From Isoptericola sp. BMS4 (GTDB lineage: Bacteria > Actinomycetota > Actinomycetes > Actinomycetales > Cellulomonadaceae), in the NCBI RefSeq assembly GCF_011634835.1, contig NZ_SIRP01000001.1:4099092-4163091 (forward strand): a DNA stretch of 64,000 nucleotides. Reading direction: 5' to 3'. Shown here one piece after another: positions 8,625 to 55,838 of the stretch (position 1 is its first letter; each line of letters opens with the position of its first letter). A program made the translations under genes and the position numbers. The notes below the pieces were generated by a model, which was given only the letters and a program-made list of their open reading frames with translations, made no database searches and had not been told where the DNA came from.

Positions 8625-11600
8625 ATGCAGCCACGACGGTCCCCCGCCCGGCGACGAGCAGCCGGGCTCACCACGACGGCCGTGCTCGGTGCACTGGCCG
8701 CGCTGGGCCCCCTCCCGGCGGCGGGTGCCACCGGGCTCCCCACCGCCACCGCCGAGGACCTTCCCCCACAGGAGCCCGGCGTCACGCTGCGGACGTACGA
8801 CCTGCGGCAGGGCATCGACAGCCTCTGCACGCTCAAGGACGGGCAGACACCGAACGTCGACAAGCTCATGCCCACCGTCGACTGGACGACGGCGGGCGAG
8901 TTCGGGCTCGAGGACAACTTCCTCACCCACGCCCTCGGCAACCTCCAGGTGCCCGCCGACGGCGAGTACACCTTCCGGCTCACCAGCGACGACGGCTCCC
9001 GGCTCTCGATCGACGACCAGGTGGTCGTCGACAACGACGGGCTGCACGGCGAGGAGTCGGTGGACGGCACCGTCACCCTCACCGCGGGGTACCACGAGCT
9101 CCTCGTCGAGTTCTTCGAGGCCGGCGGCGGCCAGGTGCTGCGCCTCGAGTGGCGGCCGCCGGGCGCCGACTCCTTCACCGTCGTGCCGAACGACGTGCTG
9201 AGCACCGAGGCCGGCGTCGTCCGTGTCACCGCCCCCGGCACCAAGTACTGCGAAGGCGCCGAGGACACCGCCGGCGACGGCCTCCCGCTCGACGCCGTGC
9301 ACCCGGCCTACGACCTCACCGACCTGCGGCCCGAGGGCTTCGAGCCGATGGTCTCGGGCATGGACTGGACCGCCGACGGCGACCTCGTCGTCGCGACGTC
9401 CGGGGACGTGAGCCCCGCCGGATGGGAGGACGACCCCCGGACCGGCGAGCTCTTCGTGCTCGACGAGGTCACGGGCGAGACCAGCGCCGACCAGGTCACC
9501 GCGACCCCCGTCGCCGACGGCCTGTTCAACCCCATGGGCGTGGACGTCGTCGGCGACTCGATCTTCGTCTCCGAGCGCGACGGCCTCACCGAGCTGACCG
9601 ACCCCGACGGCGACGGCTTCTACGACACGCGCGAGACCTTCGCCCGGTGGCCGTTCGGCGGCAACTTCCACGAGTTCGCGTTCGGCCTGCAGCACGACGA
9701 GGACTTCTTCTACGTCAACCTCTCCGTCGCCATCAACAACGGCGGCGCGACGACCGACCCGCAGCCGGCGGAGAACCGCGGCACCAGCATCAAGGTCGAC
9801 CGGGACACGGGCGAGGTCACGTACGTCGCCGGCGGGCTGCGCACCCCCAACGGGATGGCGTTCGGGCCCGAGGGCGACCTCTTCGTCACGGACAACCAGG
9901 GCGCCTGGCTGCCGGCCTCCAAGCTCGTGCACGTCAAGCAGGACCGGTTCTTCAACCACTACACCAACCCGGACGGGCCGTTCGACGACCAGCCCGTCAC
10001 CCAGCCCGTCCTGTGGATCCCGCAGAACGAGATCGGCAACTCGCCCAGCGAGCCCGTGCAGCTCACCGAAGGGCCGTTCGCGGGGCAGATGCTCTTCGGC
10101 GACGTCACCTACGGCGGCCTGCAGCGCGGCTTCCTGGAGAAGGTCGACGGGGAGTACCAGGGCGCCGTCTTCCGCCACACCGCCGGCCTGGAGGCCGGGG
10201 TCAACCGCACCACCATCGGGCCCGACGGCGCGATCTACGTGGGCGGCATCGGCGAGGCCGGCAACTGGAGCGAGCCGAACAAGCTGAAGTACGGCCTGCA
10301 GAAGCTCGCCCCGAACGGCGAGGAGTCGTTCGACATCCTCGAGGTGCGCGTCCGCGAGGGCGGCTTCGAGCTCGAGTACAGCCAGCCCCTGTCCGACGAG
10401 ACCGTGGCGAAGATCGCGGAGGACGCCGGGGCGGCCTACGACGTCGACCAGTGGCGGTACGTGCCCACCCAGCAGTACGGCGGGCCGAAGATCGACGAGG
10501 AGGTGCTGCACGTCGCGAGCGCCGCCGTGTCGGAGGACCACACGACCGTCACGCTCGACATCGACGGGCTCAAGCCCGGCCGCGTCGTGCACCTGCGCTC
10601 CCCGCGCCCGTTCAGGGACTCAGACGGCCGCGAGCTGTGGAACACCGAGGCCTGGTACACGCTCAACAGCCTGCCGGGCTACGTGGCACCCGCCGACCGC
10701 GGATACTACGAGGCCGAGGAGGCCGTGCTGCTCGGCTCCGCGGGCCTCGACAGCGAGCACAACGGGTACTCGGGCTCCGGGTTCGTCGACGGCATCCAGT
10801 CCGAGGGCGCCGGGGTCTCCTTCACGGTGACCGCCGACGAGGCCGGTAGCCAGCCCGTCAACCTGCGCTACGCCAACGGGCCGAACCCGTTCGAGGGCGA
10901 CAAGTCCGTGTCGGTCCGCGTCAACGGCACCGAGGTGGACCCGTGGGTGCTGCCCAGCACCGGGGACTGGAAGACGTGGGACTTCGTCACCCGCGACCTC
11001 GACCTGCGGGCCGGCGCCAACACGATCACGCTGCGGTTCGACGAGGGCGACGACGGCAACGTCAACTTCGACGTCCTGTCGCTCGGCGAGGACCCGGACC
11101 TGTGCACCGCCACGGAGCCGGACGCGGGCTACACCGCGCTGTTCGACGGCACGCTGGCCAGCTTCGGCGACTGGCGCCTCGCCGGCGCCGGGTCGTTCGG
11201 CCGCCAGGACGACTGCGTGCTGCGCAGCGACGGCGGTATGGGGCTGCTCTGGCACACCGACGGGCTGGAGGGCTCCTACAGCCTGAAGCTCGACTGGAAG
11301 CTCGTGAAGGACGACAACGGCGGCGTGTTCGTCGGCTTCCCCGACCCGGGGAACGACCCGTGGGTGGCCGTGAACGAGGGCTACGAGATCCAGGTCGACG
11401 CCTCCGACGAGGCCGACCGCACCACCGGGGCGATCTACACGTTCCAGGGCGCCGACCCGGACGCGATCGCCGAGGCGCTGAATCCGGTGCCCGAGTGGAA
11501 CTCCTACGACATCCGTGTCGTGGGCGACACCATCCGGGTCTTCCTCAACGGGGTGCTGGTCAACGACTTCACCAGCACCGACCCGGCGCGGGACCTGTCC

Positions 11601-11972
11601 CGCGGCTTCCTGGGCGTGCAGAACCACGGCGCGGGAGAGCGGATCTTCTACCGCGACATCCAGGTCGCGCCGATCGGGGACGTCGCTCCCACCCTGCGCG
11701 CGCAGCTCGCGCCGCCGAAGGTGAGGTCCGGGAAGGACACCAAGGTGATCACCTGGGTCACCGGCCCCGAGGAGGACGCCCCGGTCGCGACCGGCACCGT
11801 CCGCGTCACCCTCGGCGACGAGGTCGTCACGGGGCAGCTGGTCGACGGTCAGGCGAACGTCGACGTGCCGACGTCGGGCCTCGCACCCGGCGAGCACCCC
11901 GTGACCGTGGAGTACCTCGGTGACGGGCACTACGGCGAGGGGACGACGACGCAGGAGCTGACGGTGCGCTGA
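8625..11972 (+). CDS. Secreted multidomain protein: signal peptide, PA14, GSDH-like beta-propeller, CBM6/35-like, DUF1080 (3-keto-disaccharide hydrolase-like), Ig-like
   Basis: Signal peptide [24 protein letters not shown]; PA14 ([35 protein letters not shown]); propeller motifs ([23 protein letters not shown]); carbohydrate-binding-like ([23 protein letters not shown]...ITLRF); DUF1080-like ([15 protein letters not shown]...YEIQVDAS...TGAIYTF); C-terminal Ig-like. Confidence 0.75.
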   Translation: [1115 protein letters not shown]

Positions 11973-12001
11973 CGGGCACCGAGCGCGCCGTCGGACACAG
12001 G

Positions 12002-12037
12002 CAGGCCGGCTCCGCCCCCCAGGGCGGGGCCGGCCTG
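12002..12037. terminator. GC-rich hairpin between convergent genes (candidate bidirectional terminator)
   Basis: CAGGCCGGCTCCGCCCC-cca-GGGGCGGGGCCGGCCTG, about 17-bp arms, lying between the PA14 gene stop and the VOC gene stop. Confidence 0.4.
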
Positions 12038-12063
12038 AGTGTCGACCGGCCGTTCCCGCCCTG

Positions 12064-12140
12064 ATCAGCGCGGCAGTTCCGGATCCGGGCGGCAGTTCGA
12101 ACTGCCGCTCAGATACTGAGCTGCCGACGCGATCCGGGCC
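12064..12140. repeat. Intergenic repeat family B, copy 1 (contains the perfect palindrome GGCAGTTCGAACTGCC)
   Basis: About 80% identical over roughly 72 bp to 42596-42672. Both copies sit directly 3' of a plus-strand gene. Confidence 0.5.
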
Positions 12141-12168: not shown

Positions 12169-12573
12169 TCAGCCGGCGACGAGCTCGACCTCGAACCCGT
12201 CGCCGTCCTCCAGGTACCCCGCGTCGTGCTCGGGGCCGCCGGCGTTCGGGTAGCGGTCGGCGAAGAGCGGCCGCCAGCCGTGGGACGGCGCCGCGTCGAC
12301 GAGCGCGTCGAGCTGCGCGCGCGTGCCGGCGTGCAGCGCGACGTGGTTGAGGCCGGGACGGCGGCGGTCGTGCGTGCCGGCTCTCATCGCCGGGCTCTCC
12401 TCGACGACGACGTACGCCGTGCCGAGACGCCACGAGCGCCCGTGCTCCCAGGACTGGAACGGTGCGTAGCCGAGCTCACCGAGCAGCCAGCCCCACGACC
12501 GTTCCGCACGGGCGAGGTTCGGAACCCAGAGCTCGAGGTGGTGGACGGTGCCGCGCGGCGCCCCGCCCGTCAC
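12169..12573 (-). CDS. VOC / glyoxalase-bleomycin resistance family protein
   Basis: TVHHLELWVPNLARAERSWGWLLGELGY...LNHVALHAG...GYLEDGDGFEVELVA. Probable GTG start overlapping the upstream NUDIX stop (GTGA). Confidence 0.65.
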   Translation of the reverse strand: MTGGAPRGTVHHLELWVPNLARAERSWGWLLGELGYAPFQSWEHGRSWRLGTAYVVVEESPAMRAGTHDRRRPGLNHVALHAGTRAQLDALVDAAPSHGWRPLFADRYPNAGGPEHDAGYLEDGDGFEVELVAG

Positions 12574-21588: not shown

Positions 21589-22233
21589 CGGAGGTCCTTC
21601 CGGGCGGGCGCCGGGTGCGGCGCCGGAGAGGGCAGGCAGGGTGAGAGGGTCAGGAAGTGAGGCGGCGGCCACGGCCATCAGCTCGAGCCGGCGAGGAACA
21701 GGGTCCCGGGCGGACCGGGGCGACGACGACGTCGTCTGGGCACGATGCCGGTGAGGTCAGTCGAGCTCGCACATTCGACCCGCGGACACCGCGCGACAGC
21801 ACATCGCGCCGCGACGGCAGGTGCGCGCGGTCGTCGGTGCGGCGGGAGCGGTGCGGGGCATGGCCCCACAGGACCATCCGCGATCGACCTTCGCCAAGCG
21901 GGACGCCCGGGAATCTCGCTATGCGAGCCAAAATGCGTCCGCATCGCGAGAAGTGTGGCGTGGGCCACTCTCAGGGACGCAAAGGACCCCTCGCGCACCC
22001 ACCAGAGCTCACCTACCCTTGCTGCCTTCCGGCCCTGGGGGAGTTCGGCGAGATGATGCCGCACGAGGGGTCTGCCACCAGCCTAACCGAGACCCGCGCC
22101 GAGGAGAAAACCCGCGCCGCGCGCGGCGTCCCCGAGCGCGCCCGACCTGCCGATTTCCAGCCACCGGCCACCGTCCGGTAGGCTTCTGGGGCTGCCAGCG
22201 CACCGTTCTCGACGACGGGCGCCGGCTGCTCCA

Positions 22234-22318
22234 GGAGGATTCGCCTAGCGGCCTATGGCGCACGCTTGGAAAGCGTGTTGGGTTCACGCCCTCGGGGGTT
22301 CGAATCCCCCATCCTCCG
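22234..22318 (+). tRNA. tRNA-Ser (anticodon GGA)
   Basis: Acceptor stem GGAGGAT/ATCCTCC, 3-bp D-stem, anticodon loop TTGGAAA, long variable arm (class II), T-arm GGGGGTTCGAATCCCCC, discriminator G. CCA is not encoded. Confidence 0.85.
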
Positions 22319-22376: not shown

Positions 22377-22463
22377 GATGCCGAACATGGCCCCCCTCGA
22401 TGCCGAACATGTGGTTGGTCCGGAACTCGGGGTTCCAGATCCGGACCAACCACATGTTCGGCA
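22377..22463. repeat. Palindromic repeat family A, copy 1 (24-bp perfect arms TGCCGAACATGTGGTTGGTCCGGA / TCCGGACCAACCACATGTTCGGCA with a 15-nt spacer, plus a partial extra arm)
   Basis: Perfect inverted repeat; related copies lie at 23301-23380 and 36464-36549. Confidence 0.6.
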
Positions 22464-23296: not shown

Positions 23297-23300
23297 ACCC

Positions 23301-23380
23301 ACCATGCCCTCCCTCGACGCCGACCATGTGGTAGAGCAGGCATTCCGTCCCTGAGTCCCTGATCAACCACATGTTCGGCA
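23301..23380. repeat. Palindromic repeat family A, copy 2 (degenerate left arm)
   Basis: ACCATGCCCTCCCTCGACGCCGACCATGTGGT...TGATCAACCACATGTTCGGCA, starting immediately after the methyltransferase stop. Confidence 0.5.
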
Positions 23381-36463: not shown

Positions 36464-36549
36464 CTTCTCCGGCACCCCTGTGGTGCCGAACATGTGGTTG
36501 ATCCCGTTCTCGGCAACTCGATCCCGGACCAACCACATGTTCGGCAGCG
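36464..36549. repeat. Palindromic repeat family A, copy 3
   Basis: TGCCGAACATGTGGTTGATCCCG-(15 nt)-TCCCGGACCAACCACATGTTCGGCA, in a divergent intergenic region. Confidence 0.6.
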
Positions 36550-41545: not shown

Positions 41546-41881
41546 GAGGTCGGGGAGGGAATGCGGCTGTGGCATCCTGCGTTGTGCAGGACGCCGCCGG
41601 GACCTCCGGCGGCCACAGACACGCAACGTACGTGCTCCGGGGTCGGTGAGATTCCGAGCCGGCGGTGACAGCCCGCGACCCGCGCCTCCTCCGCGAGGCC
41701 GGTTGACCTGGTGGAACTCCAGGGCCGACGGTCAGAGTCCGGATGGGAGGAAGCACGTGCGGCACGCGCCCGGCGACGGGTGGGTGCCGCCGGGCGCCGT
41801 GTCGCCGGCGAGGGCCCCGCGCTCCCGGCGGACGGCCGCCCCTCACCCCGGCAGCCGCTCGACGGACCGGGAGAGTGAACG

Positions 41882-42592
41882 ATGGACGCGATCGACGCGT
41901 TCTTCCACGCCACGCTGACCATCGGCGACCAGTCGCTGCTGTGGCGCGAGATCGTCGGCAACGGCTTCGGCCTGGCCTCCGCGCTGGGCGGGATGCGCCG
42001 CAAGGTGTGGGCCTGGCCCGTCGGCATCGCCGGCAACCTCGTGCTGTTCACCGTCTTCATGGGCTCGTGGTTCGGAGACACGGGCCGCGCCGACATGCTC
42101 GGCCAGGCGGGCCGCCAGGTGATGTTCCTCGTCGTGTCCGTGTACGGATGGGTGCAGTGGCGTCGTACACGACGCGCCGACCTGGAGGTGCGCGCCGACG
42201 GCAAGGTACCGGCGTCGGGCGGGGCGGCCGTGCACCCGCAGTGGGCGACGTGGCCGCAGCGACTCGGCATCGTGGTGGTGATGGTCGGCGGCACCCTCCT
42301 CCTCACCCCGCTGTTCCGCGCCCTCGGCTCGTACGAGCCGGTCTGGTCGGACGCCTGGATCTTCATGGGATCGCTGGTCGCCACGTACGGCATGGCGAAG
42401 GGGTGGGTCGAGTTCTGGCTCGTGTGGGTCGCGGTCGACGTCGTCGGTGTCCCGCTGCTCTGGTCGGCCGACTACTTCGCCACGGCCCTGATGTACGTCT
42501 TCTACGGCGCCTTCACCCTGGTCGGCTTCTTCGTGTGGTGGCGCATCCACCGCCGCGAGCAGGACCGCACCGAGGTTCCCACGGCGACGTGA
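41882..42592 (+). CDS. pnuC: Nicotinamide riboside transporter PnuC family
   Basis: LWREIVGNGFGLASALGGMRRKVWAWPVGIAGN...WVQW...; seven transmembrane segments. Confidence 0.85.
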   Translation: MDAIDAFFHATLTIGDQSLLWREIVGNGFGLASALGGMRRKVWAWPVGIAGNLVLFTVFMGSWFGDTGRADMLGQAGRQVMFLVVSVYGWVQWRRTRRADLEVRADGKVPASGGAAVHPQWATWPQRLGIVVVMVGGTLLLTPLFRALGSYEPVWSDAWIFMGSLVATYGMAKGWVEFWLVWVAVDVVGVPLLWSADYFATALMYVFYGAFTLVGFFVWWRIHRREQDRTEVPTAT

Positions 42593-42595
42593 CGC

Positions 42596-42672
42596 CATCA
42601 GCGCGGCAGTCCGGGATCCGATCGGCAGTCGGAACTGCCGCGCCGATCCGGACATGCCGACGCGATCGTCAC
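42596..42672. repeat. Intergenic repeat family B, copy 2 (GGCAGTCGGAACTGCC variant)
   Basis: About 80% identity to 12064-12140; it lies directly 3' of pnuC. Confidence 0.5.
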
Positions 42673-42704: not shown

Positions 42705-43397
42705 ATGATCATCGCCGAGGACCTGCTGCTGCTCGCCTACGACGACGACTCCGGCAGGCCCCAGGTCGGCGCCGACGAGCTGGACTACCGCCTCGCCGGG
42801 GCGCTGCTGATCGAGCTCGCGCTGGACGGCCGCGTGGACGTCGCCGGCCCCGGCGACGTCACGGTCGACGGGGGCCCGGCGCGCGCGGGACGCGTCGTCG
42901 TGCGCGACCCGTCCCCGGCCGACCACCCGGCGCTGGACCGCGCGCTCGCCGTCGTCGCCGAGAGACCGAGACGGCCGAAGGAGCTCGTGCGCCCGCTGAG
43001 CAAGGGCCTGCGCGACGCCCTCCTGACCGGGCTCGCCGAGCGCGGCGTGCTGCGCCGCGAGGAGGGCCGGGTCCTCGGGATCTTCCCGCGGACGTCGTGG
43101 CCGGCGCGGGACTCCACGCACGAGGAGCTGCTGCGCGCGGCGTGCCGCGCCGCCCTGCTCGACCACGCGGCACCGGACGCCCGCACCGGCGCGCTCATCG
43201 CCGTCGCCCACGGGTCTGGGGTGGTGCGCGGACTGGTGCCGCGCGAGCATCGCAGGGCCGCCGAGACGCGGGCGAAGGAGCTGTCGACGCAGAGCTGGGC
43301 GAGCGGTGCGGTGAAGAAGGCCGTCGACGAGATGCTCGTCGCCGTCATGGTGCCGGTGATGGTCGCCGCGACGGCCGCGACCGTCACGACGACCTGA
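42705..43397 (+). CDS. GPP34/GOLPH3 family protein
   Basis: MIIAEDLLLLAYDDDSGRP...YRLAGALLIELALDGRV, characteristic of bacterial GPP34. Confidence 0.7.
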   Translation: MIIAEDLLLLAYDDDSGRPQVGADELDYRLAGALLIELALDGRVDVAGPGDVTVDGGPARAGRVVVRDPSPADHPALDRALAVVAERPRRPKELVRPLSKGLRDALLTGLAERGVLRREEGRVLGIFPRTSWPARDSTHEELLRAACRAALLDHAAPDARTGALIAVAHGSGVVRGLVPREHRRAAETRAKELSTQSWASGAVKKAVDEMLVAVMVPVMVAATAATVTTT

Positions 43398-43426: not shown

Positions 43427-44671
43427 TCAGGCGAACGCGGAGACCCCGGTGATGTCGCGGCCCACGATCAGGGCCTGCATGGACTCGGTGCCCTCGTAGG
43501 TGTGGAGGGCCTCGATGTCCGCGAAGTGCCGCGCGACGCGGTTGCCGAGCAGGATGCCGTTGCCGCCGAGCATGTCGCGGGCGACCGACGCGACCTCGCG
43601 GGCCTGCCGCGTGGTCGTGTACTTGGCGAGCGACGCCTGCTCGCCGGTGAGCGTGCCGGCGTCGGCGAGTCGCGTGACCTGCGCGACCAGCAGCTGCATC
43701 TGCGTGATCAGCGACAGCATGCGGGTGAGCCGCTCCTGCACCATCTGGTTGGCGGCCAGCGGCCTGCCGAACTGGATGCGCTGCGTCGCGTAGGCGGCCG
43801 CGGCCTCGTAGCAGGCGATCGCGTGCCCGACGGCGGACCACGCGACGGCCAGGCGGGTCGCGAACAGCACGGCCGCGGTGGCCTTGAAGGACGTGGCGCC
43901 GGGCAGCGCGGCGTCGGCGGGCACGAAGACGTCGTCGAGCACGATGTGCGCCTGCCAGATGGCGCGCAGCGACACCTTGCCCTCGATCGTCGTGGCGGAG
44001 TAGCCGGGGGCGTCCTGCGGGACCAGGAAGCCGTGCACCTGGCCGTCGCCGTCGTCGCCCACGAGGCGGGCCCAGACGACGGTGACGTCGCCGCAGGAGC
44101 CGAAGCCGATCCACTTCTTCTCGCCGCTGATCACGTAGCCTTCGACGCCGTCGCGGGTCTCGCGGCGGGCCGCCGTCTCGAGCGACACGGAGTCCGAGCC
44201 GTGGGTGGGCTCGGTGAGCGCGAACGCGCCGAGGATCTCCCCGCGCGCCATCGGCTCGGCGTACCGCTCGACCTGCTCGGGCGAGCCGTGCATGACGATC
44301 GAGCGCAGCGCGAGCCCGCCCTGGACGCCGCAGATCGTGGCGACGGAGCCGTCGCCGCGGGACATCTCCATGCTGGCCAGGCCCTCGGCCATGAAACTGA
44401 TCCGCGGGCGCCCGGGCACGTCGACGCCGTCGCGCAGGAAGTCGTGCTCGGCGAGCTTCTTCACGAGGTCGAACGGGACCTCGGCGCGCTCCCAGTACGC
44501 GTCGATGACGGGGAGCACCTCGTCCTGGACGAACGCGCGGACGGCGAGCTGGTGCTCGCGCGCCTCGGGGGCGACGTCGGCGAACGCGCCGACGTAGTCG
44601 AGGTCCAGCGGCTGCGACACGTCGTAGTCGGGGGCGGTCACGCCGGGCATGACGGGAGCGGTGCGGGGCAT
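43427..44671 (-). CDS. Acyl-CoA dehydrogenase (glutaryl-CoA dehydrogenase-like)
   Basis: GAFALTEPTHGSDS...EKKWIGFG...YEGTESMQALIVGRDITG. Confidence 0.85.
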   Translation of the reverse strand: MPRTAPVMPGVTAPDYDVSQPLDLDYVGAFADVAPEAREHQLAVRAFVQDEVLPVIDAYWERAEVPFDLVKKLAEHDFLRDGVDVPGRPRISFMAEGLASMEMSRGDGSVATICGVQGGLALRSIVMHGSPEQVERYAEPMARGEILGAFALTEPTHGSDSVSLETAARRETRDGVEGYVISGEKKWIGFGSCGDVTVVWARLVGDDGDGQVHGFLVPQDAPGYSATTIEGKVSLRAIWQAHIVLDDVFVPADAALPGATSFKATAAVLFATRLAVAWSAVGHAIACYEAAAAYATQRIQFGRPLAANQMVQERLTRMLSLITQMQLLVAQVTRLADAGTLTGEQASLAKYTTTRQAREVASVARDMLGGNGILLGNRVARHFADIEALHTYEGTESMQALIVGRDITGVSAFA

Positions 44672-44812: not shown

Positions 44813-44890
44813 CTCACCTTCGAGGTCGAGGTGCGGGCTCGAGGTCGAGGTGCGGGACCTCGACCTCGAGCCCTCACCTCGACCTCGCGC
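44813..44890. promoter_or_regulatory. Long imperfect palindrome / tandem (GAGGTCGAGGTGCGGG)x2 in the divergent promoter region between the acyl-CoA dehydrogenase and NUDIX genes
   Basis: CTCGAGGTCGAGGTGCGGG repeated twice, then its near-complement CCTCGACCTCGAGCCCTCACCTCGACCTCG. Confidence 0.35.
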
Positions 44891-44913
44891 CCTGGCCCCG
44901 GCACGATGAGGCG

Positions 44914-45399
44914 ATGGCGACGACGAGCGCGGGGCTGCTCCTGTACCGGGTCACGCCCGACGACCGGCTCGAGGTGCTGCTCGGGCACATGGGCGGCCCG
45001 TTCTGGGCGCGCAAGCACGCCGGCGCGTGGACGGTCCTCAAGGGCGAGCTCGAGCCGGGCGAGGAGCCGCACGACGGCGCGGTGCGCGAGGCCGTCGAGG
45101 AGCTGGGACGGCCGGTCCCCGCGGCCTCGACCCCGGACCTCGACCTCGGCGAGGTGCGCCAGCGCGCCGGCAAGAGAGTCCTGGCCTGGGCGCGCCGGTG
45201 GCCCGCCCCGGTGCCGGACCTCACCGCGATCCACGGGAACACGGTGGAGATCGAGTGGCCCCCGCGGTCGGGCCGGCGCGTCGAGGTCCCCGAGATCGAC
45301 CGCGTCGCCTGGTTCTCCCCCGACGACGCGCGGGAGGTCGTCGTCAGCGCGCAGGCCGCGTTCGTCGACCGGCTCCAGGAGTCGCTCGCGGCGTCGTGA
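44914..45399 (+). CDS. NUDIX hydrolase
   Basis: Nudix box GELEPGEEPHDGAVREAVEELG. Confidence 0.8.
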   Translation: MATTSAGLLLYRVTPDDRLEVLLGHMGGPFWARKHAGAWTVLKGELEPGEEPHDGAVREAVEELGRPVPAASTPDLDLGEVRQRAGKRVLAWARRWPAPVPDLTAIHGNTVEIEWPPRSGRRVEVPEIDRVAWFSPDDAREVVVSAQAAFVDRLQESLAAS

Positions 45400-48989: not shown

Positions 48990-50816
48990 GTGCGCCGTCG
49001 GCCGCCGACCGAGGGAGCCCCCGTGCCTCGCACCCCAGCCCGCACCGCCTCACCGACCCGCCGCCGCGCCCGCGGGCCCGCCGCGCTGACCGCCGCCGTC
49101 GCGGCCGTCGGCCTCGCGGCGCCGGGCGCGCACGCCTGGAGCCCCGCCGGCGTCGTCGACGACCCGGTCACCGTGGTCGCGGACGACGCGCGGATCTCCC
49201 TGGAGCCGCTCGGCTCCTACGCGACCGGCGTCTTCGACGAGTCCGCCGCGGAGATCGTCGCCTACCACGCGCGCTCCGAGCGCCTGTTCTCCGTGAACGC
49301 GCGGGCGGCCGAGGTCACCGCGCTCGACGTGTCGGACCCGGGCGCCCCGCGCCGCCTCTTCGCCGTGCAGACCGCGGGGTTGCGCGCCGCCGACGGCTCG
49401 CGGATCCCCGCGGGGGCCGTGGCGAACTCGGTCGCGGTGCGCGCGGACGGCCTCGGCGTCGTGGCCGTCGAGTCCGACGTGAAGACCGACGCCGGCTGGC
49501 TCGTGCTCTTCGACGCCGCGGGCGACGGGAGCGCGCTGGCCGCCGTGCGCGTCGGGGCCCTGCCGGACATGGTGACCGTCGCGCCCGACGGGCGCACCGC
49601 CGTCGTCGCGAACGAGGGCGAGCCCGCCGACGACTTCTCCGTGGACCCGGAGGGGTCCGTCTCGGTCGTCGACCTCCCCCGCCGGCTCACGGGGAAGCAC
49701 TCCGCGATCACTCAGGAGGACGTGCGCACGGCCGGTTTCCACGCGTTCGAGGGCGACGCGCTGCCGGACGGCGTCCGCGTCACCGGGCCGGACGTCGCGG
49801 ACGCGTCGGGGTCGTCGGCGTTCCGCGTCTCGCGCAACCTCGAGCCCGAGTACGTCACCGTGCCGAAGGGCTCGCGCACCGCGTACGTGACGCTGCAGGA
49901 GGCGAACGCGGTCGCCGTCGTCGACCTGCGCTCCGCCACGGTGACTGACGTGCTGCCCCTGGGCACCAAGGACCACTCGCTCCCGGGCCAGGGCCTCGAC
50001 CCCTCCGACGAGGACGGCGCCGCCGACGTGCGCGAGCTGCCGGTGCGCGGCCTGTACATGCCGGACGGGGTCGCGTCGTACACGTCCCGCGGCGAGACGT
50101 ACCTCGTCACGGCGAACGAGGGCGACGCCCGCGAGTGGGGCGACTACGAGGACGCCGCGCGCGTCAAGGACCTCGGCGACGACGGGCTGGCGCCGGTCTG
50201 CGACGACTCCCCCGCGGCCGGCCTGCTCGACGACGCCGACCTGGGCCGCCTCGACGTCTCCGTCGAGGACGGGCTGCGGCCCGACGGCTCGTGCTACGGC
50301 GAGCTGTACGCCTTCGGCGCCCGGTCCTTCTCCGTCTGGACCACCGACGGCGAGCAGGTCTTCGACTCGGGCGACGACTTCGAGCGGGTCACGGCGGACG
50401 CGCTCGGCGACGCGTTCAACACGGACCACTCCGAGACGAGCTTCGAGGGACGCAGCGACAACAAGGGCCCGGAGCCCGAGGCCGTGACGGTCGGGAAGGT
50501 GGCCGGCCGCACGTACGCGTTCGTCGGGCTGGAGCGCGCGAGCGGGATCATGGTCTACGACGTCACCGTCCCGGCCGAGTCGTCCTTCGTCACCTACGTG
50601 TCGAACCGGGACTACTCCGTGTCCGTCGAGGACGCCGTGGACGACGGCGCGGACCCGGCGTCGACCCTGGCGTCCGCCGGTGACCTGGGGCCGGAGGGCA
50701 TGGCGTTCGTCCCCGCGGGCGCGTCCCCGACGCACCGCCCGGTGCTCGCCGTCGCGAACGAGGTGTCCGGTACGACGACGCTGTTCGAGGTGGACCGCCT
50801 CACCGGGCGCCGCTGA
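48990..50816 (+). CDS. Secreted beta-propeller protein (choice-of-anchor I / phytase-esterase-like family); start uncertain
   Basis: Signal peptide ALTAAVAAVGLAAPGAHA; repeated VANEGEP / VTANEGDA / AVANEVSGT propeller-blade motifs. Confidence 0.55.
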   Translation: MRRRPPTEGAPVPRTPARTASPTRRRARGPAALTAAVAAVGLAAPGAHAWSPAGVVDDPVTVVADDARISLEPLGSYATGVFDESAAEIVAYHARSERLFSVNARAAEVTALDVSDPGAPRRLFAVQTAGLRAADGSRIPAGAVANSVAVRADGLGVVAVESDVKTDAGWLVLFDAAGDGSALAAVRVGALPDMVTVAPDGRTAVVANEGEPADDFSVDPEGSVSVVDLPRRLTGKHSAITQEDVRTAGFHAFEGDALPDGVRVTGPDVADASGSSAFRVSRNLEPEYVTVPKGSRTAYVTLQEANAVAVVDLRSATVTDVLPLGTKDHSLPGQGLDPSDEDGAADVRELPVRGLYMPDGVASYTSRGETYLVTANEGDAREWGDYEDAARVKDLGDDGLAPVCDDSPAAGLLDDADLGRLDVSVEDGLRPDGSCYGELYAFGARSFSVWTTDGEQVFDSGDDFERVTADALGDAFNTDHSETSFEGRSDNKGPEPEAVTVGKVAGRTYAFVGLERASGIMVYDVTVPAESSFVTYVSNRDYSVSVEDAVDDGADPASTLASAGDLGPEGMAFVPAGASPTHRPVLAVANEVSGTTTLFEVDRLTGRR

Positions 50817-50940
50817 CGCGCGAACGGGTGTCGCGGTGCGTCAGGATCCGGCTCCTGACGGACCGCGACGCCCATTCGAAGCTCGGCCTGGCGGTGGCCC
50901 TCAAACCTGGATATGTTTTGTCCAGTAAGGAGGTGGCGAC

Positions 50941-54123: not shown

Positions 54124-55838
54124 ATGCAGAGGAAAGTACGCAGCCTGAAGCGGTCACAGACCGTTCTGGCAGGTGTCGCGATGGGGGTCGCGGGCACCAT
54201 GGTCGCCTCGACGGGGGTCGCGTTCGCCGACACCGTCGACGTCGACCCGCAGGGCTCCGCGGGCGTCGAGGCCGACGCCCTCGCCTCGGACCTGCTGGGC
54301 ACCGCCCTGGCCGGGGCGGACGACTCGGAGAAGGCCGGGGCCGCCGCGAGCGTCTTCGGTTCGAGCCTGCTCGGCAAGGACGTCGCCGGACTCGCGCAGT
54401 CGGAGGCGACGTTCCCGTCGAACCCCGGCCCGAACACGGCCGACCTCGACGTCGAGGCGCTCGGCGACAAGAGCATCAGCGTCGACGGTGTCGACGTCCC
54501 GCTCGACCAGATCATCGACTTCGGCCAGCTGGGCGCGCTGCAGAGCGAGTCCACGGCGACCGACGAGCTCAACACCGAGGCGATCTCCGGCCTGCTGGGC
54601 GCCGACGGCGCCATCACGCTCGACGGCGAGGACGGCGACTTCGGCGCCGCCGAGATCGACCTGCTCTCGCTCTTCGACGAGCTCGAGGTCAACTCGCTGA
54701 CCGACGGCGTCGTCGACGAGGCGACGCTCCGGCTCGGTGCGGGCGGCGCGCGCGTCGTCACCGAGGACGGCGAGTTCGTCGACCCGGACGGCGTGGGTGG
54801 TCCCGGCGAGTACCGCGTCGGCGAGGCGAGCGCCATCGCGCACTCGCCGCTCATCGAGCAGGCCGCCGGCCAGCTCTACGACGCGATCGGCACCTACGAG
54901 AAGCAGCTCGTGGGCAAGGTCAACGAGCTGATCGACACCACGGCGATCACCGGCACCCTGCCGGCCGGCGTGGACCTCAGCGAGACGTGGATCGAGTCGG
55001 ACATCCAGGACAAGGTGTTCGCCGCCGTCCTGGACGAGCCGATCACGACGAAGAACAAGTTCCTCACGATCGACTTCTCGACGGGGACCGCGACGATCCA
55101 CCTCGACCAGCTGCTCTCGGGCGAGCTGCGTCCGGGCCAGCCGACGGGTCTCAACGCGCAGAACCCGAACACGGAGCTCATCGACGACGAGATCTACCCG
55201 ATGATCGCCGAGAGGCGCAGAACCCGAACACGGAGCTCATCGACGACGAGATCTACCCGATGATCGCCGAGAGCGTGCACGACGCCATGAACGAGGCGAC
55301 GCACATCGCGCTCGGTGCGGTCGAGGGCGCGCTCGAGAGCGTCACGATCCACTTCGTCGCGGACGTCACTACGCCGCTGCTCGGCAACGCCACCGCCAAG
55401 TGGGACGTCAACCTCATGAGCGGTGACCTCACCAACGTCACCTGCGAGGGCGAGGGCCTCCTCGGTGGTCTGGGCTGCACGACGCTGAAGACCACGGTGA
55501 GCACGCTGGGCCCGGTCGTCGAGACGGCGCTCGTCCCGGCGCGCGACTTCGTGCTCGGCGACGGCGGTCAGCAGCTCTTCGACACGCTGATCGGCGACAT
55601 CAAGACCGGCGCCATCACGGTGCCGGTGCGTCAGGCGCTGGAGCCGTTCATCGAGCAGGTCGCCCAGGTCGTCTCGGTGCAGGTGAACCACCAGGCGACG
55701 CAGACGTGCACGGCGGACGACGGTTCGGAGCGGACCAGCGGTCTGCAGGTCTCGGCGCTCAGCGTCGGCCTCGTGCCGGCCTCGGACGCCGGGCGGCTCA
55801 ACCTCGGCAACGCCGGGGCGAGCATCACCGCCTGCTGA
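54124..55838 (+). pseudogene. Secreted protein gene disrupted by a perfect 59-bp tandem duplication that shifts the frame
   Basis: ORF 54124..55263 and ORF 53979..55838 both encode the peptide QNPNTELIDDEIYPMIAE in different frames. Removing one 59-bp copy gives a single 551-aa ORF. Signal peptide VLAGVAMGVAGTMVASTGVAFA. Confidence 0.6.
55156..55273 (+). repeat. Perfect 59-bp direct tandem duplication (2 x GCGCAGAACCCGAACACGGAGCTCATCGACGACGAGATCTACCCGATGATCGCCGAGAG)
   Basis: Read directly from the sequence: 55156-55214 equals 55215-55273. Confidence 0.85.

Follow-up and report, generated by a model that had tools for sequence, protein, structure and literature searches.

Two copies of a four-unit palindrome

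The window, that is, the whole stretch of 64,000 nucleotides analysed here, contains two similar stretches of about 75 bp, each placed behind the end of a gene. What are these sequences, and what could have kept them there? They lie within a few bases of where the original prediction had put them, and their similarity, estimated there at about 80%, is borne out: an ungapped alignment of copy A (12064-12134) with copy B (42597-42667) gives 59 identical positions out of 71, or 83%. With a per-base match probability of 0.304, taken from the window composition, the chance of at least 59 matches out of 71 is 5.6e-20 for any one pair of positions; multiplied by the number of such pairs in 64 kb, this becomes about 2e-10. 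The two copies and their neighbours are listed below.

8682..11972, plus strand: 1115-aa open reading frame, the "PA14 gene" of the original prediction; upstream neighbour of copy A
11998..12036, plus strand: separate G+C-rich hairpin GGCAGGCCGGCTCCGCCCCCCAGGGCGGGGCCGGCCTG, directly after the 1115-aa gene and outside the element; only 16 bits in the covariance model
12061..12136, no strand assigned: copy A, whole element, solo; 76-nt model span with a paired core at about 12065-12132, from covariance model and folding
12061..12079, plus strand: copy A unit 1, CTGATCAGCGCGGCAGTTC; heptamer CGGCAGT at 12071-12077
12080..12098, plus strand: copy A unit 2, CGGATCCGGGCGGCAGTTC; heptamer CGGCAGT at 12090-12096
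12099..12117, minus strand: copy A unit 3, inverted; ACTGCCG at 12101-12107, making CGGCAGTTCGAACTGCCG together with unit 2
12118..12136, minus strand: copy A unit 4, inverted and degenerate; GCTGCCG at 12120-12126
12169..12573, minus strand: glyoxalase/VOC-like gene, by reading of its translation; convergent neighbour of copy A
41882..42592, plus strand: gene of a PnuC-family transporter (PF04973) with an FMN riboswitch ahead of it; upstream neighbour of copy B
42594..42669, no strand assigned: copy B, whole element, solo; paired core at about 42598-42665, from covariance model and folding
42594..42631, plus strand: copy B units 1 and 2; CGGCAGT at 42604-42610 and 42623-42629, 19 nt apart
42632..42669, minus strand: copy B units 3 and 4, inverted; ACTGCCG at 42634-42640 and degenerate CATGCCG at 42653-42659
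42705..43397, plus strand: GPP34-like gene, downstream neighbour of copy B; its orthologue at locus L001 carries PF05719

The element is about 68-76 bp long and is built of four 19-nt units, two pointing to the centre from the left and two from the right, each with a CGGCAGT-type heptamer at the unit end. In the window copies the heptamers of the left arm are spaced by exactly 19 nt. The units of copy A, read toward the centre, share 12-16 of 19 positions in pairwise comparison, with 16 of 19 between units 1 and 2, while the fourth unit is degenerate in both copies (GCTGCCG in A and CATGCCG in B). Units 2 and 3 join to form a central palindrome, and units 1 and 4 lengthen it to arms of about 34 bp. 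It had been claimed that both copies contain the perfect palindrome GGCAGTTCGAACTGCC. This holds for copy A, where the palindrome, of 16-18 nt, is found as CGGCAGTTCGAACTGCCG at 12090-12107; the centre of copy B is the imperfect CGGCAGTCGGAACTGCCG at 42623-42640, with two mismatches in its loop-proximal part. Likewise, the internal hairpin described before does exist, but as the core of a larger structure, the whole element being a palindrome of four units. Both copies fold as one long hairpin, with -51.4 kcal/mol and a z-score of -6.05 for copy A; for copy B the values are -43.2 kcal/mol and -3.1. Folding of the reverse strands is about as favourable, and the covariance model scores the two strands alike, with 65 bits (plus) and 61.7 bits (minus) for copy A and 51 and 49.2 bits for copy B. 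The element can snap into a hairpin on either strand or extrude as a cruciform.

Copy A stands between convergent genes. Copy B starts 2-5 nt past the pnuC stop codon (42590-42592) and ends about 35 nt ahead of the ATG of the GPP34-like gene at 42705; homologues of the PnuC protein, the best of them 92% identical, put the window in the Promicromonosporaceae, near Isoptericola. Scans for sigma-70-like or terminator-like sites found 0 at the two copies. Rfam 15 has no family for the element: at the gathering threshold only the FMN riboswitch, SRP RNA and tRNA were matched in the window, and at E up to 10 there were only spurious miRNA-precursor matches far below threshold. As annotation of the window the message is modest and ordinary: both stretches are solo repeat copies, and neither is a gene, a riboswitch or a proven terminator. 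Also present in the window are GCCGAACATGTGG hairpins, a third hairpin with the four-unit design at 44817-44891 and another one at 50821-50878, in line with the earlier suggestion that this genome is rich in such elements.

Spread, sequence classes and copy number of the family

Is the element confined to this genome? To this question a search pattern, CGGCAGT-N10-14-CGGCAGT-N4-ACTGCCG, was built from four copies (in the window, L001 and L003; L-numbers are our labels of loci), and one genome per species was scanned. At least 114 stretches were found, with true matches in at least 37 assemblies, so that the two copies do belong to a family of REP-like structured intergenic repeats with many members elsewhere, as had been proposed. 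Among the matches listed, the assemblies with true copies include 15 of Isoptericola, 8 of Cellulomonas and nine MAGs, and the further genera are Promicromonospora, Xylanimonas, Cellulosimicrobium, Antribacter and Microlunatus. Microlunatus speluncae, which carries copies, belongs to a different order from the other hosts. At least 9 loci were found in I. luteus, at least 8 in NPDC019482 and at least 7 in NPDC019693. Eight pattern matches, in Erythrobacter, Stenotrophomonas, Novosphingobium, Flaviflexus, Salinibacterium, Nocardia and one MAG, were discarded as chance matches because they have neither the fourth unit nor the palindrome. No match to the element was found in plasmid and phage collections, nor any match to the partner protein described below in the plasmid collection.

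All true copies align without gaps, and the 19-nt spacing of units is kept in all but one of them, although the pattern had permitted 17-21. That CGGCAGT is invariant in units 1-3 of the alignment follows from the search pattern itself. No such requirement was set on the fourth unit, for which about 52% of copies have ACTGCCG and about 44% AGTGCCG. Hence an outer heptamer with the same fixed G.G (or C.C) mismatch recurs in about 44% of the copies. At its ends the consensus reads CGnTC...GAnCG. The stretch of 6-8 nt ahead of a heptamer varies by genome: I. luteus and the window have GATCAGCG, NPDC019693 has GCTCGGCG, Cellulomonas has GACGAGCG and Microlunatus has CAAACG/ATCCG. These prefixes differ between individual copies too, with the arms staying complementary. 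As for copy number, four solo copies were met in 213 kb of unselected DNA. This suggests about 70-80 copies per genome, a rough figure that depends on the genome.

The palindrome is kept at the DNA level

Is the complementarity of the arms maintained, and on which molecule? Complementarity reaches 34 nt from the centre and falls to background beyond 37. In the alignment of 102 copies, 86.4% of the stem cells are paired, compared with 72.3% in column shuffles, and none of 500 shuffles attained the observed value. Cells changed on both sides number 519, while 207 are expected (102 copies). When the partner column was slid by 1-3 columns as a control, only 25-46% of cells were paired. The arms thus show strong co-variation that is maintained.

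A constraint on an RNA stem is expected to favour G:U over A:C mismatches on the sense strand. On the mRNA-sense strand the stem mismatches are 46 G:U and 43 A:C. Asymmetric copies show no bias of orientation relative to transcription (7 versus 14, p = 0.19), and there is no T-run in the flanks, where the frequency of T does not exceed 0.18. Because G:U equals A:C, a U-tract is absent and neither strand is preferred, the constraint acts on DNA rather than on RNA.

Positions relative to genes and at orthologous sites

Gene contexts were taken from our own GC3-based gene finder, in which stop codons are exact and starts approximate. Among 94 classifiable copies, 79 are cleanly intergenic, of which 25 are in convergent, 40 in same-direction and 14 in divergent settings. 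The median gap of these 79 copies is 17 nt to a stop codon versus 88.5 nt to a start codon. In same-direction settings, 31 copies are nearer to the upstream stop and 9 nearer to the downstream start (p = 7e-4). Thus the earlier remark that the copies stand 3' of plus-strand genes is half right: the bias to 3' ends is real, while the plus-strand pattern is an accident of having only two copies. At 19 of the 79 sites the element nearly fills the intergenic region, with 40 nt or less left over. The 119 adjacent genes belong to 151 unrelated Pfam families with no recurrent transposase. No target-site duplication of 2-6 nt was found at boundaries 32-43 nt from the centre; there were only artefacts of palindromic dinucleotides.

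The site behind pnuC illustrates how patchy the occupation is. An element is present there in the window, in L001 (Isoptericola sp. NPDC019693) and in L041; there is none in L003, in L127 or in the closest relative (L125/L126, with a PnuC of 89% identity). L003 lacks the element after pnuC, yet has it elsewhere, and L128 carries an unrelated long palindrome at the 3' end of pnuC instead. What is more, the pnuC copies of the window and of L001 are each closer to other copies of their own genome than to one another. Many other sites are occupied in several species, and therefore copies can be old and vertically inherited. The patchiness at pnuC together with the many sites filled across species indicates an old family with turnover or concerted change. 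A candidate empty site, L079 compared with L010, was rejected, as it appears to be a decayed copy. No clean pair of empty and filled sites with near-identical flanks, no transposition event and no excision product was seen among the sites compared, which are either diverged or decayed.

A partner gene bracketed by hairpins

Clustering of the predicted proteins of the 8-kb loci fetched with the pattern gave only one recurrent neighbour family, a protein of about 320 aa that occurs in unrelated contexts. Where both ends of the gene are visible (L049, L070, L077, L093, L095, L090 and L009/L085), hairpins flank it on both sides. The upstream hairpin lies 50-220 nt before the start codon, and the downstream hairpin abuts or overlaps the stop, which explains annotated C-termini such as ...GGSSGSRRQFELP as translated hairpin. 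As these loci had been selected for the element, six paralogues were fetched by protein identity alone. Five of the six are bracketed on both sides (L118, L119, L121, L123 and L129), and L130 has the upstream copy only. The hairpins are specific to the paralogue:

L118: CGTCATT/CGGCAGT
L119: CGGTAGT
L121: CGGCAGT/CGGCACT
L123: CGGTTCGTGGG type
L129: TCGGCAGAA

When copies are compared in a similarity matrix, the hairpin upstream of a gene is usually most similar to the one downstream of it, and vice versa. The covariance model was also run on 153 kb obtained without use of the pattern, where its only matches were two solo copies and the gene brackets. The solo subtypes of a genome match the copies around the gene of the same genome, for example in I. 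luteus and the Lab288 MAG. At least 3 paralogues are found in I. croceus and two in X. cellulosilytica. The association of the hairpin family with this gene is thus specific and matched by paralogue. The genes themselves stand at conserved loci and are 45-60% identical to one another, so they do not jump themselves. No homologue of the partner protein is encoded within the 64-kb window.

What kind of protein is it? The N-terminal part is an AbiEi-type DNA-binding module, with PADLOC AbiEi models matching residues of about 14-175 at E values of 1e-12 to 1e-14. The C-terminal part is a Vsr/DUF559-type PD-(D/E)XK nuclease, in which fold comparison found the Vsr-like catalytic fold. The AlphaFold model, built on 51 homologues, has a pLDDT of 93.7. 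Residues D221, E232, D234, K238, K258 and R260 are invariant in the 51 homologues, and for this reason the nuclease site looks intact. Pfam gave only sub-threshold matches of AbiEi_4 and DUF559 and NCBIfam gave nothing; a search of the profile against PDB sequences returned no real match, and a profile search for distant homologues returned close relatives only. An AbiEii (DUF1814) toxin gene is not adjacent to the gene in L118, L119, L121, L123, L129 or L130, where the neighbours are unrelated housekeeping genes.

A possible mechanism and its alternatives

What, then, could multiply or maintain the repeat? The reading we favour, by a little over even confidence, takes the window stretches for solo copies of a REP/REPIN-type palindromic repeat that resides in the chromosome, is constrained as DNA and is probably seeded by the nuclease of its AbiEi-Vsr partner. 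We infer that the partner protein binds the units and that its nuclease acts on the palindrome, by which copies are multiplied or maintained. The four 19-nt units are probably recognised by the AbiEi module, in the way that AbiEi and Rv2827c bind inverted repeats in their own promoters, and the palindrome, once bound or extruded, is probably cut by the nuclease domain. The protein would then act in trans to seed or maintain new copies, with no target-site duplication, as RAYT does for REPINs, and selection would then spare copies only where they are harmless, namely at gene 3' ends. If the two window copies do terminate transcription or stabilise RNA, this would be a side effect. A mismatch-type nuclease that attacks the extruded hairpin could be the reason both for the complementarity of the arms and for the G.G mismatch that is fixed in about 44% of copies. 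We know of no Vsr-type PD-(D/E)XK nuclease that mobilises DNA in trans.

Four other explanations were considered, and all are ranked below the REPIN-like reading. That the hairpins work in RNA, terminating transcription at the mRNA end or blocking 3' exonucleases as REP of E. coli can do, was the selected function put forward originally. The closeness of copies to stop codons, the excess of upstream-stop positions in tandem settings, the great stability of the hairpins and the sites where the element makes up almost the whole intergenic region all speak in its favour. Purifying selection on insertions would, however, leave an equal 3' bias, and there is neither a U-tract nor any site in the terminator scans. 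Asymmetric copies have no preferred orientation, G:U mismatches on the sense strand are as frequent as A:C, and 14 of 79 copies lie between divergent genes. The copies also bracket the nuclease gene, its upstream side included, the gene before copy A already has a hairpin of its own, and presence at the pnuC site is patchy. An RNA-level function is therefore unlikely. In a different explanation the copies are immobile operators, that is, regulon or chromosome-organising sites of an AbiEi-type protein rather than selfish DNA. The four units do resemble the four inverted repeats bound by Rv2827c, the gene-proximal copy is placed as an autoregulatory operator would be, and many sites are common to several species. 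But most copies are found at 3' ends and not at promoters, the neighbouring genes come from 151 unrelated Pfam families, orthologous sites are occupied patchily and the sequence subtypes are genome-specific. Moreover, positions outside the heptamer vary and still stay complementary, a pairing that a regulator binding duplex DNA does not need. We regard immobile operators as quite unlikely.

Could the nuclease gene and its two hairpins instead form a mobile unit of the homing type, whose solo hairpins are remnants of recombination, like solo LTRs, or target sites of break repair? Gene copies are few and diverged while solo copies are many, and the locus is conserved across Isoptericola, with neighbours shared by L032, L049, L077 and L093 and by L049 and L070. 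Among the loci compared, no solo site is occupied by the gene in a relative and no presence/absence polymorphism of the gene is seen at hairpin sites; the initial rise in hairpin number would also be left unexplained. This makes a homing-type gene rather unlikely. Last, the repeat might be an ordinary MITE, derived by deletion from a DDE-type insertion sequence and moved by the transposase of the latter. In favour of this, it is short and palindromic and is dispersed through intergenic DNA, and some transposons, such as Tn7, Mu and IS21, have more than one binding-site repeat at each end. Against it, no target-site duplication exists at any boundary examined, no transposase recurs in the set of 119 adjacent genes or in the clustering of neighbours, and the element has no interior, being four units only. 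In about 1.1 Mb of flanking DNA there was no full-length, transposase-encoding element with these ends. An ordinary MITE is very improbable.

Comparison with known repeat systems

REP and REPIN elements are the best-known persistent and vertically inherited repeats of bacteria, and to our knowledge the RAYT transposase is their only established engine. As far as we know, REPIN-RAYT systems have been described mainly in Proteobacteria. REPINs consist of REP doublets that form hairpins and go with REP-associated tyrosine transposases (Bertels & Rainey 2011, PMC3116915; PMC3337134; PMC5581495). The present family resembles them in nearly all respects but the enzyme. It too consists of short, multi-copy, extragenic repeats, in which inverted repeats form a hairpin of about 70-110 nt that is upheld by compensatory change. 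Its sequence populations are genome-specific, its inheritance is chromosomal and largely vertical, the low-copy partner gene is flanked by cognate copies, and several pairs of repeat class and partner are possible in one genome. The differences lie in the partner, an AbiEi-type module with a Vsr/DUF559-type PD-(D/E)XK nuclease instead of a Y1/HUH tyrosine transposase, in the lack of a 5' GTAG-type tetranucleotide, in arms made of two direct 19-nt units each rather than one self-palindromic REP, and in the hosts, which are Actinomycetota. For the 119 adjacent genes, the list of families with more than one matching gene has 25 Pfam entries, and neither Y1_Tnp nor another transposase family appears there. 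As the defining RAYT and GTAG features are absent, we call the family REPIN-like with a different partner, not REPIN.

For the units as binding sites, the best precedent is the operators of AbiEi and Rv2827c, proteins that bind two or four 23-bp inverted repeats between -1 and -131 of their own start codon (PMC7319586). Inverted repeats of about 20 bp just upstream of an AbiEi-family gene are found here as well, a likeness that concerns only the gene-linked copies and not the two window copies, where there is no such gene. Unlike those operators, the repeat block here also stands downstream of the gene, and dozens of solo copies occur elsewhere. The AbiE type IV toxin-antitoxin systems (PMC7319586, PMC3985639) differ further in that the gene here has no adjacent AbiEii (DUF1814) toxin gene and its protein carries a nuclease domain. 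With the Vsr endonuclease, DUF559 proteins and the Vsr-like homing endonuclease I-Bth0305I (PMC3239194; PMC3424549) the protein shares the Vsr-like catalytic fold. Its gene, unlike theirs, is free-standing, being neither intron-encoded nor beside a cytosine methyltransferase; it joins the nuclease to an AbiEi module and has palindromic repeats on both sides. Intergenic position, palindromic structure, multiple copies and enrichment at gene 3' ends are common to this family and to REP/BIME of E. coli, ERIC, Correia/NEMIS, RUP and SMAG, some of which affect mRNA stability or termination. The present element has no sequence similarity to them, is composed of 2 + 2 units of 19 nt, and gives no sign of constraint at the RNA level.

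The candidate partner enzyme is of a kind that we do not know from REP-type elements, and for this reason the family is more interesting as a lead than the original prediction held. A literature search found nothing that links DUF559/AbiEi-like nucleases to palindromic repeats and nothing on REP elements in these genera, although the coverage was incomplete and this is weak evidence of novelty. As a wider proposal, held tentatively and with somewhat less than even confidence, Actinomycetota might hold a second kind of REPIN-type system, in which palindromes of about 70 bp made of 19-nt protein-binding units are kept or multiplied by a cognate AbiEi/Vsr-like nuclease fusion and not by an HUH tyrosine transposase, and in which pairs of protein and hairpin co-exist in one genome and co-evolve. 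If the pairing is functional, high-G+C Gram-positive bacteria would have evolved the REP/REPIN life-style with an unrelated enzyme, and many genes annotated as hypothetical, AbiEi-like or DUF559 would gain a concrete role. A source would also be identified for the long perfect palindromes at hairpin positions in these draft assemblies. Runs of G and C were observed at two such hairpin positions (L119 and L100).

Probable parallel classes of hairpins

Is the CGGCAGT class, a dispersed palindrome of four 19-nt units, accompanied by other hairpins? The window holds the following:

21979-22075 (-), signal recognition particle RNA, adjoining the first family A hairpin
22234-22318 (+), tRNA gene, adjoining the same hairpin
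22381-22463, family A hairpin
23298-23380, family A hairpin
36464-36546, family A hairpin
44817-44891, hairpin of 2 + 2 19-nt units with a motif other than CGGCAGT, 27.8 bits with the covariance model of the CGGCAGT class
50821-50878, long imperfect palindrome in the gap 3' of the gene ending at 50816

The hairpin of 2 + 2 units lies between genes 43427-44650 (-) and 44914-45399 (+), and its units carry TCGAGGTCGAGGTGCGGGc twice, followed by the same motif twice inverted. It is probably a further class within the superfamily of CGGCAGT elements. The hairpins of family A, the other short-repeat family of the window, are built on GCCGAACATGTGGTTG...CAACCACATGTTCGGC, with the motif GCCGAACATG directly repeated in the left arm. 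Locus L111 carries hairpins of a comparable class, GCCGAACAGGCAGTTG, at ~3046 and ~6852. As for the imperfect palindrome, the gene that it follows appears by synteny to be the putative counterpart of the choice_anch_I gene of locus L003, after which a CGGCAGT-class copy sits.

Another long-palindrome class, CGTTGTGGGCGTGATTTCGGGGAC..., is widespread among the loci of other genomes, and double-unit hairpins of additional classes (GAGATCGTGGGT, CGAGTTCGTGAG, GCGAGATAGAGAG and GAGGTCGGTAA) occur in Cellulomonas and Isoptericola. The latter suggest that many hairpin classes exist in parallel.

Hairpins in the loci of other genomes

CGTTGTGGGCGTGATTTCGGGGAC... class: L128:5725-5790; L004 ~2594, L009 ~749, L027 ~1244, L034 ~1185, L070 ~7766, L081 ~5236, L125 ~2076
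Double-unit classes: L008 ~7283 and ~7865; L071 ~5799, L110 ~5187, L013 ~892; L017 ~6595; L024 ~6257, L104 ~4936
Variable unit number or chaining: L011:2300-2470; L023, L066, L067; L025 ~430, L074 ~4700, L094 ~3807, L105 ~6544
Long G runs followed by C, where a hairpin was expected: L119:10960-11040; L100 ~4139

The number of units per element is not constant, with three per arm in some copies. In I. chiayiensis and GXG9306, inverted units follow the outer units (..AACTGCCGACGTCGGCAGTT..) and give chained arrays similar to the BIME clusters of E. coli. As for the G-then-C runs, the palindromes probably led to errors of assembly or sequencing there.

Neighboring genes and signals

41629-41759, FMN riboswitch (89.4 bits), immediately 5' of the 'pnuC' gene
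55156-55273, 59-nt sequence present twice in perfect tandem, head to tail and 100% identical

The 3' site of pnuC carries a CGTTGTGGGCGTGATTTCGGGGAC... palindrome in L128, while it carries a CGGCAGT copy in the window. With RibM/PnuX-type genes as a guide, the window transporter more likely imports riboflavin than nicotinamide riboside.

For the partner gene, which encodes the AbiEi-Vsr fusion, a conserved motif (T)TGTCCACAGG(G) lies 40-70 nt 5' of the start codon, in the stretch separating that codon from the upstream hairpin (L118, L119, L121, L123, L032, L049, L077 and L037). The motif resembles the actinobacterial DnaA box TTGTCCACA and may act as part of a promoter or as an operator.

The tandem duplication falls at the end of the predicted gene 54124-55263; since 59 is not divisible by 3, it is either frameshifting or an assembly artefact.
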